The notes beneath the pieces were generated by a model. It worked only from the letters and a program-made list of their open reading frames with translations. It was not told the origin of the DNA and searched no databases. Positions 25,817 through 29,770 of a stretch of 64,000 bases of DNA are shown piece after piece. Source of the DNA: Waddliaceae bacterium (lineage in GTDB: Bacteria > Chlamydiota > Chlamydiia > Chlamydiales > SLFE01). Within the stretch, counting starts at the first letter, position 1; each line of letters starts with the position of its first letter. The translations under genes and the position numbers were made by a program. The stretch is from NCBI GenBank assembly GCA_963783885.1, contig CAWAPJ010000029.1, forward strand, positions 37,593 to 101,592. The letters are read 5' to 3'.

Positions 25817-26998
25817 TTATTTGGATAGAACGCAGGCAAAGCCCCCATCCCAACCATCTTTGTTCGGTAATATGACCTTATGACACAAGCAATTTCCCCA
25901 CAATCTTTCTTCTTTGACAAGGTTTTGATTCTCGCAGGGCAGGATGCTGCACGTCATATAGAAAACTCTGCCATGGGGTGTTAATAAATCGAGGGCATGC
26001 CTTAAGAGCTTTTTTTGAAGCGAGCGGAGTTCTTCGACGGCACAAGAGTTGAGCCTCCAACGGGCTTCAGGCCGTTTGTTGAGCACTCCCGAATTGGTGC
26101 AGGGAGCATCGACAATGATAAGATCATAACGATCATCAGTTGAAAACGTTTCTCCACGGCTGATTGAATAGTCGGCATTGATGCCGTATTTTTCAAAATT
26201 TTCCCGTATTTTATTCATCTTGCCTTCCGAAACATCATTGACAGTGAGTTTTGCCTGGGGATAAAGATCATGGGCAAGCAGGGCCTTTCCCCCGGGAGAG
26301 GCTGCGAGGTCTAAAATGGTCTTGGGAGGTTTTGTCAAAAAATTAGCCATTTTCCCCATGAGAAGAACTGGGGTGATGTTCTGAATATAAATATCCGGAG
26401 ATTCGGAATAGTCTTGAGGGTTTTCGATGGGGAAAACTTTTAAAGGAGAATCGCTGCCCCGCCTTAGGCGGCCCATCGTTTTGCCGGGGGTATTGCCCGC
26501 TTCCAAGGTCGCAATTGTCGTTTGAAGGCCGTATTCTACGAGAAGCTGCTGAACATAAAATTTGGTATAGGAATAACGGATGCTGAGGCTTTCGGCATCA
26601 CTTCCCTGAGGCAGTCTGAACTCTGTATGGGGGATCTTCTTCAGCACGGCGTTTAAAAAGGAGGCAAACCGGACATGGCACTCTTTTTTTGCCAGCTCGA
26701 CGCTCTCGTTGACAATGGCGTGCAGAGGAACTTTGTCCATTTCAAGCGCTTGATAGAGAGCAATATAAAGTAAAGCCCTCTCTTTGCGTTTCAACTTCAG
26801 GGTGTCTGAGAGTTGTTTGGCGTAGTGGTCGAGAGTTTTTTGTTTTCTCATAGCGCCGTTGGCGATTTCTTTTGCGAAACGAAGATCTTTCGAGGAAGGG
26901 GCGTCGGATTGTTGCCAGGTCTCAAGAAATGAGGAGATAAACTGCTTTTCCCTCATAGATCCGAGAAGAGCTTTGTAGGCCGCTTCTCTTGCATTCAT
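25817..26998 (-). CDS. rsmB: 16S rRNA (cytosine-C5) methyltransferase, RsmB/Sun type
   Basis: It has a NusB-like N-terminus, a SAM-binding block (ILDLAASPGGKA), and DAPCTNSGV and TCS motifs. Confidence 0.8.
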   Translation of the reverse strand: MNAREAAYKALLGSMREKQFISSFLETWQQSDAPSSKDLRFAKEIANGAMRKQKTLDHYAKQLSDTLKLKRKERALLYIALYQALEMDKVPLHAIVNESVELAKKECHVRFASFLNAVLKKIPHTEFRLPQGSDAESLSIRYSYTKFYVQQLLVEYGLQTTIATLEAGNTPGKTMGRLRRGSDSPLKVFPIENPQDYSESPDIYIQNITPVLLMGKMANFLTKPPKTILDLAASPGGKALLAHDLYPQAKLTVNDVSEGKMNKIRENFEKYGINADYSISRGETFSTDDRYDLIIVDAPCTNSGVLNKRPEARWRLNSCAVEELRSLQKKLLRHALDLLTPHGRVFYMTCSILPCENQNLVKEERLWGNCLCHKVILPNKDGWDGGFACVLSK

Positions 26999-27882
26999 TT
27001 TTTAGTGATCCATTCTCTGACCACCCATTTTTGAAACCATTCCGACAGCTTGCCAGCCGAATCCTCGATCCATTCTTCATGCTCTTCTTCAAGAACCGCG
27101 CACGCTTCGTCGATAGTCGTACCCTGCTTGAAAAGATTGAGAAGAAATAATTCCGGTTCATCAATTTCTTCCCAGCACATGTTGTGTCTAAAGTTGCGGA
27201 AAAGGCAAAATGTATACCGTTTTTCTTTGTCAAGTTTCGGGAAGTCATGCTCTTCCCAATGTTCGGGCTTCTCTTCTAGCATCTCATCGCGGAACTGAAA
27301 GAGGTGATAATTAAGGGGGAAAAGATAAATATGGGGCTGGAGGACGAGACGTTTATTGAGAAGGGAAGAGAACTCATCCGAATTAGGGAGGTCTTTTTGA
27401 CTCAACGGTGGATTGTGGGGCATTAAAAAGCCGTCATTGTAGGCCAGGTCGATTGCTGCGGCGTCATAGACGAATGACTTGTCGTTGTTATGATAGTTGT
27501 TTTGGATCCAGTCAGGGAGCCGGCTCCCAAGCGGGTTTAGCGACCAGCTATCGGGAGGATGGTCCAGCAGGTAGGGCATTGCGATTGTTTGATTAAAATC
27601 GAAGTAGCCGAACATGCGTGTGACTAGAGGAAAAATATCGTGCAGAATCGACAGCAGGCGCCACCAATATTGCTGGTTGTAGATCTCGATTCTTCTATGG
27701 GATTCCAATGTAGGGCTGGGGGTGATAAACTGCTTGGCCTCTTCTTTCATCGGCTGGCCGGAAGGCGAGAGGGGATTCATGCGGCTGTTTTCATCGATGG
27801 GGCGCGCAATAATATTGCCAAACCACTGCTGGGTCAACTTCAGAGTGTGGGGAACTGTAGAATCAAAGATTACGTCAGACAT
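26995..27882 (-). CDS. DUF2063-family partner protein of the MNIO enzyme (BufC/MbnC-like)
   Basis: The 295-aa ORF has the N-terminal pattern ...RRIEIYNQQYWWRLLSILHDIFPLVTRMFGYFDFNQTIAMPYLLDHPPDSWSLNPLG typical of DUF2063. It overlaps the DUF692 gene by 13 nt. Confidence 0.65.
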   Translation of the reverse strand: MSDVIFDSTVPHTLKLTQQWFGNIIARPIDENSRMNPLSPSGQPMKEEAKQFITPSPTLESHRRIEIYNQQYWWRLLSILHDIFPLVTRMFGYFDFNQTIAMPYLLDHPPDSWSLNPLGSRLPDWIQNNYHNNDKSFVYDAAAIDLAYNDGFLMPHNPPLSQKDLPNSDEFSSLLNKRLVLQPHIYLFPLNYHLFQFRDEMLEEKPEHWEEHDFPKLDKEKRYTFCLFRNFRHNMCWEEIDEPELFLLNLFKQGTTIDEACAVLEEEHEEWIEDSAGKLSEWFQKWVVREWITKK

Positions 27883-28739
27883 TTTTTCAAAGGGGTTTTG
27901 CAGTTTTTTTCGATTGCTTTCTGAAATTTTTTCGCTTTCAGCGCTTCGTCCCAGGTTTCCTGAAAGCTCACAAAGTTATCGTCCCATTCAAGAAGAGTTG
28001 AGACGCCCCCTGTTCTTGGATAAACTTCAGCATAGATGTCCCAAACCTCATTGCGGACGTAATTATCATGGGTATCGAGAACATAGTCTCCGTGATCGGT
28101 GTGTCCGGCGATATGGATCTGGATAACGCGTTCCATCGGGATATTGTTATAATAATCTTTCGGGACAAATCCGTGGTTTCTGCTGGAAACGTAAATATTA
28201 TTGACATCGAGCATCATGTAAATGTCGGCTTTTTCCACGATCGCCGAATAAAATTCCCATTCGGGCATTTCATCATCTTTGAAAGCGACATATGAAGAGA
28301 GATTTTCCAGAGCAAAGGGAAGCTCCAGATAATCCTGAACAATGCGCGCTCTTTCAGCGACATAATTGATCACTTCCCGGGTATAGGGCAGGGGGAGAAG
28401 GTCGTGAAAATGTGCCCCGGCCAGCTTTCCCCAGCAAAGGTGGTCGGATATCCAAGGGGTTTTGGTTTTAAAGGACAGTTTTTTCAGTCTTTTCAGGTAG
28501 TCGAAGTCGAGGGGATCGGGGCTCCCTATGGCTAGGGCGACGCCATGTTGGACCACGGGATACATTTCGAGGATCCTTTCGAGATTTTCGATGGGTTTTC
28601 CTCCGTCGACCATGAAATTTTCGCTGATAATTTCGAACCAGTCAACATCCGGTTTATCCCGGAAGATGTCTTCGTAATGGGGAATACGAAGCCCTAGGCC
28701 GATACCTAGATTGGGAATCATTTTGTTTGTTTTAGCCAT
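27870..28739 (-). CDS. DUF692 / MNIO (multinuclear non-heme iron oxidative) enzyme, BufB/MbnB-like
   Basis: The 289-aa ORF has GIGLGLRIPHYEDI, DWFEIISENFMVDGG, YPVVQHGVALAIGS, WISDHLCW and IHIAGH blocks characteristic of DUF692 TIM-barrel enzymes. Confidence 0.85.
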   Translation of the reverse strand: MAKTNKMIPNLGIGLGLRIPHYEDIFRDKPDVDWFEIISENFMVDGGKPIENLERILEMYPVVQHGVALAIGSPDPLDFDYLKRLKKLSFKTKTPWISDHLCWGKLAGAHFHDLLPLPYTREVINYVAERARIVQDYLELPFALENLSSYVAFKDDEMPEWEFYSAIVEKADIYMMLDVNNIYVSSRNHGFVPKDYYNNIPMERVIQIHIAGHTDHGDYVLDTHDNYVRNEVWDIYAEVYPRTGGVSTLLEWDDNFVSFQETWDEALKAKKFQKAIEKNCKTPLKKCLT

Positions 28740-28777
28740 GTCAAAAGCCTATATTAAAACAGCAATAGGAAAAGAGT

Positions 28778-29218
28778 TCAATCTGTTTGAGTTTTTTCCC
28801 TTTTTTCAGCCATTTTTTTTGCGACGAGTTTGACTGCGAGATTTTTGTCTCCGATCGCGCATTTTGTTGTTCCTTTGCATTCGCCTTTGCCGGCACAATC
28901 ATTGTCTTCGGTTTTGCAGGCATTGAGTCCTTTGCACTCGTTAGCACCATTGCACCGTCTGCTGGCAACTTTCAGGGCCAGTTTTTTCCCTTCCGGCGAG
29001 AGAGACTCATAAAGCTCTCGTCCTTTTCTATTCAGATTGAGGAACAGTTCCTGTTCGCTCATTAAATAATACCCCTCGTTTTCCGAATTGGGATCCTCTT
29101 CATATTCGTCGGCTTTACCGGCCGATGTTTCTTTTTCCTGCCCTTGCAGCGTAGGAGTCATGAATAGTCCCGAGGCTATGCCGATAATGGCCAGCTTTCC
29201 AAGATCTCTTTTTTTCAT
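28778..29218 (-). CDS. Sec-exported 6-Cys RiPP precursor candidate (bufferin BufA2-like)
   Basis: I set the start at the second Met (ATG at 29218), giving the signal peptide [26 protein letters not shown]. The core is [34 protein letters not shown]. It lies 38 nt upstream of the DUF692 gene. Confidence 0.7.
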   Translation of the reverse strand: [146 protein letters not shown]

Positions 29219-29308
29219 AACACTTCTCCTTGCCAGATAAAATATGCGGCCTTTGAAAGACCGCATATTTTGGGTTAATAGAAAAACTAAATCCTTCCCT
29301 TATGGGGA

Positions 29309-29770
29309 TTACAGGCGATATCCATAGGAACCGTTGGATCCTCCGCAGCTTCCCCTGTCTTTGCCATTGTTATGGTTGCCGCAGCTTCCCCTGTCTTTGC
29401 CATTGTTATTGTTGTTGCTGTTGTCGTGATTTTGATATTGGTTGTCCGAATTGTCATGATTTTGGTCATTGTTTCCATTGTCATGATTTTGATCATGGCC
29501 GTTCGAATAATTATAATTAGTTTGGCTGTAATTTCCATTGGCGTTGTCATAATCTCCGTTATAGCGTCTTGTGCGTCCGTTATTTGTGTTGTCTGCATGT
29601 GGGCGGCATTTTTGGGGACATCCCCCTTTTGCCATTTGCTGGTTGGTTTCATTTCCGGGAATAAAATGCGATGTGTCGGCGCCTGCCTCACCGGAAACAA
29701 CAAGTCCTGCAGCCATTCCCATCAATGCAAGTTTTGTGAGTCTGCTTTTTGAAAAATCTCGTTTTTTCAT
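29309..29770 (-). CDS. secreted Asn/His/Asp-rich low-complexity protein with Cys-containing tandem repeat
   Basis: It has a signal peptide (MKKRDFSKSRLTKLALMGMAAGLVVSGEAGA). Then come GGCPQKCRPH, three QNHDN motifs, and NNGKDRGSCG twice. It is the first gene, co-directional with the MNIO operon. Confidence 0.55.
   Translation of the reverse strand: MKKRDFSKSRLTKLALMGMAAGLVVSGEAGADTSHFIPGNETNQQMAKGGCPQKCRPHADNTNNGRTRRYNGDYDNANGNYSQTNYNYSNGHDQNHDNGNNDQNHDNSDNQYQNHDNSNNNNNGKDRGSCGNHNNGKDRGSCGGSNGSYGYRL
29343..29414. repeat. 36-nt tandem duplication (2 units, 35/36 identical) inside the N/H/D-rich gene
   Basis: CCGCAGCTTCCCCTGTCTTTGCCATTGTTATGGTTG is followed directly by the same unit with one G>T change. 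It encodes NNGKDRGSCG twice. Confidence 0.9.

Follow-up and report, generated by a model that had tools for sequence, protein, structure and literature searches.

A probable bufferin-type RiPP cluster with a putative helical-scaffold precursor in a Waddliaceae-like environmental chlamydia

The window analysed here, a stretch of 64,000 nucleotides from a Waddliaceae bacterium, very probably carries a bufferin/captophorin-type RiPP system of an environmental, Waddliaceae-like chlamydia, in which a modified precursor would buffer periplasmic copper. The four co-directional minus-strand genes, read in a preliminary description as a BufA2-like metallophore operon with BufB/BufC-type enzymes, were all recovered as open reading frames with unchanged boundaries (Table 1). 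That reading gained support from a maturase scoring above the BufB cut-off, a DUF2063/NGO1945-type partner, the homology of the Cys ladder and the gene order. Bufferin systems are already characterised and very widespread. Judged by its sequence, what really distinguishes the present one is the architecture of the precursor, with three helices forming an N-terminal domain, one more helix at the C-terminus and a sixth ladder cysteine (CysVI) that is moved or missing. The substrate appears to be a divergent helical-scaffold form overlooked by current family models; a published survey recorded three chlamydial genomes as MNIO-positive and Buf2-negative.

Table 1. Positions of the cluster features and of the related precursor gene in the window.
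Feature	Position	Strand	Basis or remark
Putative secreted low-complexity N/G/D/H-rich protein, 153 aa	29309..29770	-	ORF and composition
RNA hairpin, 15 bp, U-rich 3' side	29239..29271	-	between the GC-box gene stop and the precursor's ribosome-binding site
Six-Cys BufA2-like precursor, 146 aa	28778..29218	-	ORF, weak BufA2-model match, family conservation
Precursor: putative signal peptide	residues ~1-26		variable linker after
Precursor: conserved three-helix N-domain	residues ~47-88
Precursor: Cys ladder	residues 89-120 = 28859..28954	-
Precursor: basic C-terminal helix	residues 124-146
MNIO (DUF692) of BufB type, 289 aa	27870..28739	-	PF05114 and NF050167
MNIO partner, PME-type 1 / BufC-like, 295 aa	26995..27882	-	N-terminal DUF2063 and C-terminal NGO1945_C/RRE-like domain (predicted)
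rsmB, RsmB-type 16S rRNA methyltransferase	25817..26998	-	Pfam NusB and Methyltr_RsmB-F
Unlinked five-Cys precursor paralogue, 137 aa	17639..18052	+	N-domain and C-helix as in the six-Cys precursor

The assignment of the MNIO to DUF692 was confirmed by the profile search (PF05114, 343.6 bits against a gathering score of 25, E=8e-103, profile positions 1-262 of 263). The protein also passed the cut-off of the equivalog model for the bufferin maturase (NF050167, MNIO_BufB; 319.9 bits, cut-off 310) and scored below the cut-offs of the other NCBIfam models (HvfB 242.9/360, ApyH 83/400, ChrH 59/600, MbnB 43/325). Residues H65, D99/H100, E145, D178, N180, H209, D222, H224 and E251 were identical in 3BWW, TglH (8HCI) and MbnB (7DZ9), the metal-ligand role of these aligned positions being taken from the published structures. 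The enzyme carries the motif E251-W-D253-D254 where 3BWW has E-R-D-F. An Asp in place of Phe immediately following the proposed catalytic Asp marks the MNIOs of the Cys-Lys (BufA2) type, with FonB D249-F250 and BufB2 D251 as references (PMC13097082), and by alignment D254 corresponds to this Asp signature.

The adjoining gene, which overlaps the MNIO gene by 13 nt, was likewise upheld as a DUF2063 protein (PF09836, 45.8 bits, gathering score 27.2). Its match to PF22106, a family that many close homologues do carry, remained under the cut-off (20.8 bits versus 27). The AF2 model of the partner (pLDDT 92.8) had NGO1945 (3DEE) as its top Foldseek match in the PDB (E=3.4e-6, TM 0.67 on the target), followed by TglI (8HI7_A), and its C-terminal domain is predicted to be NGO1945_C/RRE-like. 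The NCBIfam scan gave no match to a BufC-specific model and returned the HvfC model alone; since the score of 23.2 bits lies below the equivalog cut-off of 142, the partner was rejected as an HvfC orthologue.

The precursor ATG is preceded by an AAGGAG ribosome-binding site, and the homologues likewise begin at MKKR. A longer, 162-aa reading frame from 29266 has its start inside the hairpin. A positive n-region (MKKRDLGK) and a hydrophobic h-region, the latter conserved in the family, point to a Sec-type signal peptide, through which the protein would be exported. The cysteines at positions 89, 95, 101, 108, 114 and 120 form the ladder C-x5-C-x5-C-x6-C-x5-C-x5-C. In the structural model the ladder region had low confidence (pLDDT 40-49) and was flanked by confidently predicted helices, in agreement with the earlier placement of the Cys core between helices. 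The comparison with the 6/12-Cys BufA2 model (NF050166) was favourable only in part: the ladder matched (model positions 28-62 of 79, E=2.5e-7), but the protein did not reach the family cut-off (30.8 bits versus 60), whereas canonical BufA2 controls scored 82.9 bits over positions 1-78. Profile alignment of the precursor to canonical BufA2 gave an hhalign probability of 96.8%, with the homology limited to the 38-column Cys ladder. The spacing from CysI to CysV was that of canonical BufA2 (x5, x5, x6, x5) and the flanking residues were alike (CKGxNAC, CxGxxxCKG). CysVI, however, follows CysV at x5 instead of x12, so that the chlamydial precursor may not adopt the canonical CysI-CysVI topology. 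A search with the DUF2282 (Buf1) model, the other class considered beforehand, was negative, as none of the three secreted proteins had any Pfam match.

The precursor is a member of a chlamydia-associated subfamily that numbers at least 481 clusters at 50% identity and has a common layout of putative signal peptide, conserved three-helix N-domain, ladder and basic C-terminal helix. The subfamily comprises six-Cys and five-Cys forms, and the window carries one of each. Conservation of the ladder, on which the earlier reading had been made to depend, was complete: the spacing was identical in 120/120 best homologues, which argues that the ladder is no chance feature. When 44 aligned family members (the window's two precursors and 42 homologues) were scanned with NF050166, all matched weakly, the best E-value being 4e-11. 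The second, unlinked precursor announced in the preliminary description is present, but its ladder holds five cysteines, not six, because Gly occupies the CysVI position (C-x5-C-x5-C-x6-C-x5-C, then KGTSKGPF). The five-Cys form is itself conserved, accounting for 61 of the top 150 cluster representatives. The survey of synteny across chlamydial loci found the order precursor, MNIO, partner to be kept. Sufficient downstream sequence was available for 35 six-Cys precursors; of these, 25 directly precede an MNIO gene, three more have one within 6 kb, and seven have none in the sequence examined around them.

The N/G/D/H-rich neighbour and the precursors share one type of putative signal peptide. 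The mature part of the neighbour, 122 residues long, contains 30 N, 17 G, 12 D, 7 H and 4 Cys. Residues 49-55 form a GGCPQKC box, and GSCG occurs twice near the C-terminus. Only two sequence homologues and no Pfam or NCBIfam match were found; given the latter and the lack of EGKCG repeats in the protein, its assignment to Buf_EGKCG/oxazolin was rejected. Its sequence and position would place it in a fast-evolving, positionally conserved class of secreted proteins with the motif "LAxGGCGxGxCGG". For 26 of 42 six-Cys precursors this GC box was located upstream or in a fusion with the precursor, and box-bearing proteins occupied the same position in L002, L006, L007, L012, L019, L020, L025, L027 and other loci. 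The GC-box protein may act as another substrate or as a partner that binds metal. The hairpin downstream of its gene was highly stable in strand folding (-24.9 kcal/mol, z = -4.5, with 0/200 shuffles as stable), was kept in L002, where an A-U pair has become G-U, and looks like a terminator or attenuator. At the other end of the cluster, the start of rsmB overlaps the stop of the partner gene by 4 nt, so the two are probably co-transcribed. The rsmB gene, whose adjacency recurs in L002, L003, L006, L011 and L019-L021, is a neighbour that does not contribute to the system's function. The Pfam scan and locus comparison revealed no copper-responsive regulator, sigma/anti-sigma pair or DoxX in the cluster, and the apparent coupling to the housekeeping rsmB would suit constitutive rather than stress-induced expression.

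Compared with bufferin 2 of Caulobacter vibrioides (bufA2-bufB2-bufC2; BUF_6/12Cys or 'Cys-Lys' captophorin), the chlamydial cluster has the same order of precursor, MNIO and DUF2063 partner, no DoxX, a Sec-type signal peptide (by sequence) on the precursor, an identical CysI-CysV ladder including the Cys-Lys dyads, and a maturase above the BufB equivalog cut-off with Asp at the Cys-Lys specificity site. Precursor genes that stand alone or in tandem are found in either system. Canonical BufA2 proteins measure ~85 aa and carry the ladder directly after the signal peptide, whereas the chlamydial precursor inserts the N-domain of ~40 aa before the ladder, has a basic helix ([17 protein letters not shown]) instead of the canonical C-terminus GF..x..C..GGKF, and lacks CysVI altogether in the five-Cys paralogue. 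The chlamydial cluster is also without evident SigF/NrsF-type regulation and is accompanied by the GC-box protein. Other traits that had seemed unusual proved not to be so. The length of the precursor is not exceptional in itself, since the published range for Buf2 is 51-367 aa (PMC12452194), and the unlinked precursor and missing accessory genes have precedents in stand-alone and tandem precursors and in buf2 clusters without DoxX (PMC12452194, PMC11626156). Bufferin 1 or gig operons (DUF2282 precursor, MNIO, DUF2063, DoxX; e.g., Micavibrio L023), which are also found in amoeba-dwelling bacteria such as Legionella, share the enzyme pair and a Cys-containing precursor that is Sec-exported, as would be the window's. 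They differ in their four-Cys DUF2282 precursor and, in L023, in the DoxX that is absent from the window cluster. Oxazolin/fontiphorin systems (HvfA/FonA, EGKCG repeats; 'Lys-Cys' captophorins) are likewise MNIO-PME1 clusters, and the GC-box proteins resemble them in having low-complexity repeats and Cys flanked by Gly (C-G dyads); the window, however, lacks EGKCG repeats, the specificity site of its MNIO is Asp rather than Phe, and the HvfB score of this enzyme is under the cut-off.

The installation of 5-thiooxazoles requires BufB and BufC, which together suffice for it, and bufferins bind copper and protect against it (PMC11626156). The same chemistry could also serve a role other than copper defence, such as a periplasmic copper chaperone or store (e.g., for a heme-copper quinol oxidase), the handling of another metal, or redox stress in the chlamydial developmental cycle. 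We consider this unlikely, even though a cyoABCDE-type heme-copper quinol oxidase operon (32744..37391) lies 3 kb away, a metal-responsive regulator is absent from the cluster, which is coupled to rsmB, and MerC fusions and doxX genes hint at roles with other metals or stresses (PMC12452194). The only tested bufferins work in copper detoxification (PMC11626156; PMC13097082), and the flank downstream of the cluster differs in Estrella and L027.

It is still less probable that the ladder protein is no MNIO substrate at all but a Cys-rich periplasmic or envelope disulfide protein, as are chlamydial envelope proteins, with the MNIO pair acting on another peptide such as the GC-box protein or an unannotated small ORF. 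The sub-threshold BufA2 score, the seven precursors without an MNIO, the unlinked paralogue, the VKOR-type disulfide-forming enzyme encoded within the window, and the chlamydial MNIO loci with other or no Cys proteins upstream (L011, L014, L016, L017, L018) would fit such a protein, but not the exactly canonical CysI-CysV spacing and similar flanks, the 28/35 precursors that adjoin or neighbour an MNIO, or the Asp signature for Cys-Lys substrates. A ladder modification different from 5-thiooxazole, such as the oxazolone-thioamide of methanobactin or a new cross-link enabled by the x5 position of CysVI, is extremely improbable. The precursor context is unlike that of all tested substrates, MNIO reactions are diverse, and structural assignments for close relatives have been in conflict (PMC13097082). 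However, the enzyme reaches BufB equivalog level, with a score well beyond those on the MbnB, ChrH and ApyH models, and the oxazolin product has been reassigned to 5-thiooxazole, which is argued to be installed broadly by MNIO-PME1 clusters (PMC13097082).

The chlamydia-like host suspected at the outset was corroborated by the nearest loci, which come from Waddliaceae metagenome-assembled genomes (MNIO identity 94% and 88%), and by two TLC ATP/ADP translocases encoded in the window. The MNIO identity of 70-94% between chlamydial loci versus 40-56% to others, together with the lack of a GC-content anomaly in the region, points to a system long resident in the chlamydial lineage. As a copper-buffering bufferin system, it would operate as follows. 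The precursor would be synthesised in the cytoplasm and presented by the BufC-like DUF2063/RRE partner to the BufB-like multinuclear iron oxidase, which, with O2, would turn central ladder cysteines, mainly at Cys-Lys sites, into 5-thiooxazoles. The unlinked five-Cys paralogue is probably another substrate of this enzyme pair, and the helical scaffold may replace the clamping role of the CysI-CysVI disulfide. After Sec export and removal of the signal peptide, the modified protein would chelate copper in the periplasm, and may in this way buffer the copper pumped by amoebal or phagocytic hosts into bacteria-containing vacuoles.

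All four minus-strand ORFs named in the preliminary description were found in the window where it had placed them. For the six-Cys precursor, the 146-aa start was preferred over a 162-aa ORF because an AAGGAG ribosome-binding site precedes the ATG of the former, homologues share its MKKR start, and the upstream ATG of the latter lies within a stable hairpin. The Cys residues of the precursor are at positions 89, 95, 101, 108, 114 and 120, giving a ladder with the spacing C-x5-C-x5-C-x6-C-x5-C-x5-C. A six-frame scan of the window for Cys ladders returned a single additional ORF, located on the plus strand. 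It represents the second, unlinked precursor noted earlier, but is a paralogue with five ladder Cys instead of six, since the sixth position is occupied by Gly (CKGTSKGPF). The host is chlamydial, the nearest loci being derived from Waddliaceae metagenome-assembled genomes with MNIO (DUF692 enzyme) identities of 94% and 88%. Two tandem TLC ATP/ADP translocases are encoded in the window, directly upstream of the five-Cys paralogue, and TLC genes also adjoin the cluster in L027, a comparison locus whose ladder-less GC-box protein is described below. DoxX was not found among the window ORFs scanned. Elsewhere in the window, a Kef-type Na+/H+ exchanger appears to be split into two ORFs, the second of which carries TrkA_N and TrkA_C; a frameshift, pseudogene or misassembly may account for this.

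Coordinates of features in the window and in the comparison loci
Locus	Feature	Coordinates	Strand	Remark
Window	N/H/D-rich GC-box protein	29309..29770	-	153 aa
Window	Hairpin	29239..29271	-	15 bp, U-rich 3' side
Window	Six-Cys precursor	28778..29218	-	146 aa
Window	MNIO	27870..28739	-	289 aa
Window	Partner	26995..27882	-	295 aa; 13-nt overlap with MNIO gene
Window	rsmB (16S rRNA methyltransferase)	25817..26998	-	start overlaps partner stop by 4 nt
Window	Five-Cys paralogue	17639..18052	+	
Window	TLC ATP/ADP translocase pair	14259..17499	+	620 and 599 bits
Window	Kef-type exchanger, first ORF	10291..10977	+	profile positions 3-201
Window	Kef-type exchanger, second ORF	11034..12281	+	profile positions 240-374
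Window	Repeat protein	30443..32626	-	727 aa
Window	cyoABCDE-like operon	32744..37391	+	3 kb from cluster
Window	SPW/VKOR protein	49903..51192	-	
L002	GC-box protein	4997..5425		
L006	GC-box protein	4774..5466		
L012	GC-box protein	4859..5488		
L019	GC-box protein	5176..5502		
L020	GC-box protein	5080..5496		
L025	GC-box protein	4469..4924		
L027	GC-box protein, ladder deleted	3764..4759		331 aa
L026	Collagen-like secreted proteins	5701..8445		

The proposed DUF692 assignment of the MNIO was confirmed by a Pfam MbnB_TglH_ChrH match over the full model (E=8e-103). The protein reached the cut-off of the curated NCBI equivalog for BufB (319.9 bits, cut-off 310) and scored far under those of the HvfB, ApyH, ChrH and MbnB models. 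Alignments with 3BWW, TglH and MbnB revealed identical residues at the His/Asp/Glu/Asn iron-site positions. The type of substrate is reported to go with the residue following the proposed catalytic Asp: enzymes for Lys-Cys (EGKCG) substrates have Phe there, and those for Cys-Lys (BufA2-type) substrates have Asp (PMC13097082). After the Glu ligand the window enzyme reads E-W-D-D, and its specificity residue is Asp, compared to Phe in 3BWW. The partner passed the Pfam DUF2063 model, as had been anticipated, with a sub-threshold match to NGO1945_C; both domains are present in many of its close homologues. Its structural model, built from 40 homologues (pLDDT 92.8), gave NGO1945 (3DEE, E=3.4e-6) and TglI as the best PDB matches, the former being the prototype MNIO partner. 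The DUF2063 match and the NGO1945/TglI fold thus identify the protein as a PME-type 1 (BufC-like) partner. The identity of an HvfC orthologue was ruled out by the scores (23 versus 142 bits).

The six-Cys precursor had no Pfam match, and its sole NCBIfam match, to the BufA2 precursor family (NF050166), reached 30.8 of the 60 bits required and was confined to residues 84-118, i.e., the ladder. Among 5.8 billion proteins searched, 223 homologues were identified, and the predicted conservation of the ladder was evident from its exact spacing in all of the best 120 of these 223 (120/120). The few named homologues among the matches listed were assigned to Chlamydiae, Parachlamydiaceae and Estrella lausannensis. 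The alignment exhibited a fixed layout, consisting of a signal peptide, a variable linker, a conserved N-domain (DPNxxNxGYHLMTEDELLLELNxEGxKLYxSLSPEGKxLAxxVAS), the ladder and a basic C-terminal helix. The placement of the Cys core between helices, suggested earlier, was reproduced by AlphaFold2, with helices at residues 55-61, 64-72 and 75-85 (pLDDT above 90) and 125-145 (82-89), a low-confidence ladder region (40-49) and a pTM of only 0.52 for the whole model. Sequence and fold searches of the PDB retrieved nothing similar to the precursor, and its helical scaffold is therefore without a solved relative. When 1.84 billion cluster representatives were searched with the family profile, 481 clusters were obtained at E<=1e-3, of which 147 also passed E<=1e-30. 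The best 150 all matched the N-domain, ladder and C-terminal helix jointly, and included 87 six-Cys and 61 five-Cys forms, one of each being present in the window. The five-Cys representatives tended to be longer and to carry low-complexity N-terminal extensions.

Scanning metagenomes with the same family profile yielded chlamydial-type loci as well as loci matching residues ~85-128 only, the latter encoding canonical BufA2. These proteins are shorter (~85 aa), often occur in tandem, carry the ladder ~10 residues past the signal peptide and are followed by an MNIO 45-56% identical to that of the window. As controls they matched NF050166 along its entire length with 82.9 bits. Their Cys residues are spaced x5, x5, x6, x5, x12, so that the chlamydial ladder agrees with them in the first five positions and departs at the sixth. 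In a profile-profile comparison, the chlamydial family matched BufA2 with a probability of 96.8% (E=2.4e-10) over 38 columns corresponding to the ladder. With homology limited to these columns, the chlamydial precursors share the modified core of BufA2 and constitute a separate architectural subfamily. The BufA2-like identity proposed at the outset thus stood with respect to the ladder and failed at the curated cut-off. This subfamily is missed by existing resources. The Estrella precursor (WP_098037344.1) is named "hypothetical protein" in RefSeq. The genomes of Waddlia chondrophila, Protochlamydia amoebophila and Parachlamydia acanthamoebae are each tabulated by Antoine et al. 2025 (PMC12452194) with DUF692=1, DUF2063=1 and Buf_6-12Cys=0. 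Zero precursors are also given there for a Caulobacter assembly, so missing annotation can contribute to such counts. In the same survey, no MNIO gene is counted for Chlamydiaceae or for Simkania (PMC12452194). Literature searches for MNIO/DUF692 in Chlamydiae returned passing mentions only, and those for bufferins were swamped by the word 'buffering'.

The order precursor, MNIO, partner recurred among 21 chlamydial genome loci found via the MNIO, and cultured Estrella lausannensis has the same gene arrangement. Downstream DNA of 400 nt or more was available for 35 six-Cys precursors, pooled from genome, metagenome and look-up loci; the MNIO gene followed directly in 25, lay within 6 kb in three, and was absent from the available flanking DNA in seven. 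Five MNIO loci (L011, L014 and L016-L018) had other Cys proteins or none upstream; therefore, the system can also work with unlinked precursors, a mode of use that the window paralogue suggests as well. Horizontal transfer of the cluster was unsupported, given the lack of a GC anomaly and MNIO identities of 70-94% across diverse chlamydial genomes. The data show that environmental Chlamydiae retain a bufferin-type version by vertical inheritance. In chlamydial loci the partner is often directly followed by rsmB, a recurring adjacency which suggests that the cluster is transcribed together with a housekeeping gene. In one chlamydial genome (locus L026), genes for collagen-like Cys-containing secreted proteins with GPT/GAT repeats separate the ladder precursor gene from that of the MNIO. 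The repeat protein of the window, which has no Pfam match, contains a repeated ~45-aa motif (GxDVxxIxxAxxxLPxxTRKNTLALxSQLxH), is 66% conserved beside the cluster in the close relative's locus L002, and may be a lineage-specific effector.

The N/H/D-rich neighbour was strongly enriched in N, G, D and H, and it contains four Cys. A homology search with this protein returned two matches, namely itself and one partial relative; given this near-absence of homologues, its class had to be set by position and motif. In many loci, a secreted low-complexity protein with the same type of signal peptide is encoded upstream of the six-Cys precursor, and a box with the consensus LAxGGCGxGxCGG (QQMAKGGCPQKC in the window) follows ~12-15 residues further on; the resulting GC-box class is defined by regular expression, which is cruder than a profile. 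A GC-box gene was located no more than 400 nt upstream of 18 of the 38 six-Cys precursors with upstream DNA, and in eight more six-Cys proteins the box was fused N-terminally to the ladder module. Such fusions were present in 57 of 148 cluster representatives (box at residues 39-49 in 36/57 and at 34-62 in 46/57). Of the other ORFs in the same loci that were 100 aa or longer (593), 28 carried the motif, and all but ~2 of these 28 were the upstream GC-box proteins already mentioned. No Pfam or NCBIfam family was found for these fast-evolving proteins, and no description in the literature searched. A reading of the LAAGC-type box as a lipobox was not adopted, as it lies ~15-20 residues past the hydrophobic core and after charged residues, and the window version, AKGGC, does not fit. 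The adjacency and fusions argue for a functional link between the GC-box protein and the ladder precursor. The box itself might act as an additional substrate, as a Cu(I) site or in some other way. The 331-aa secreted GC-box protein of L027 has kept the N-domain and the C-terminal helix (LLSQLNAQGKAIYQSLDARGKAEALQLASQGDKNEAVKEAQRRM) and has lost the Cys ladder by deletion, which supports the helices as a unit of their own. RiPP operons usually carry a terminator-like hairpin after the precursor gene. In the window, a hairpin whose stability greatly exceeds that of shuffled sequences (z = -4.5) separates the GC-box gene from the ribosome-binding site of the precursor; the closest relative, L002, retains this hairpin with an A-U to G-U change. 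The element may serve as an attenuator or terminator and thereby set the relative expression of the two genes.

Copper is used by amoebae against ingested bacteria. In characterized systems, BufB and BufC are necessary and sufficient for conversion of Cys to 5-thiooxazole, which does not require the signal peptide; bufferins are exported via Sec, bind copper and protect against it, and the buf2 cluster lacks DoxX (PMC11626156; PMC13097082). By analogy, the central ladder Cys of the chlamydial precursor would be modified in the cytoplasm, and the modified precursor would then be exported by Sec and buffer copper in the periplasm. Legionella, likewise of amoebal lifestyle, has many such clusters (PMC12452194). 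The presence of an MNIO in the three amoeba-associated chlamydiae and its absence from Chlamydiaceae and Simkania fit amoebal copper ecology. As the cluster lacks a regulator and is coupled to rsmB, it might also act constitutively, possibly by supplying a copper chaperone. Close to the cluster, the window contains a cyoABCDE-like operon for a heme-copper quinol oxidase (COX2/COX_ARM, COX1, COX3, COX4_pro and a UbiA-type heme O synthase), a copper-requiring enzyme in an intracellular bacterium. A protein with SPW repeats and a VKOR domain, likely a periplasmic disulfide-forming enzyme, is also encoded in the window and may be relevant to the numerous exported proteins that are rich in Cys.

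Bufferins and captophorins are recently defined, very widespread copper-binding modified peptides, with described examples mostly from Pseudomonadota. The system type is known and very common, and long precursors, stand-alone or tandem precursor genes and the absence of DoxX have all been described already (PMC12452194). Novel here are the precursor architecture associated with chlamydiae, which falls short of the curated family model, the sister form with five Cys, and the GC-box proteins found alongside. In a tentative and rather doubtful reading, Chlamydiae would possess an elaborated bufferin module of their own, with one BufBC pair serving two paralogous ladder proteins. The thiooxazole ladder would form a loop inserted in a small helical protein, whose scaffold would take the place of the BufA2 disulfide clamp, hence the viability of the five-Cys form. 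The GC-box proteins, including the N/H/D-rich protein of the window, would represent an unrecognised class of MNIO substrates or an obligate metal-handling partner, as suggested by gene adjacency, frequent box-ladder fusion and the terminator-like hairpin after the GC-box gene. The ladder-between-helices layout and the five-Cys form provide a natural test of what MNIO-PME1 substrate recognition needs, and the GC-box proteins offer a candidate for a further component of such systems. Amoeba-associated chlamydial lineages would be predicted to contain a periplasmic copper-handling protein, and the survey counts for Chlamydiaceae and Simkania fit the idea that copper poisoning by protozoa selects such systems.
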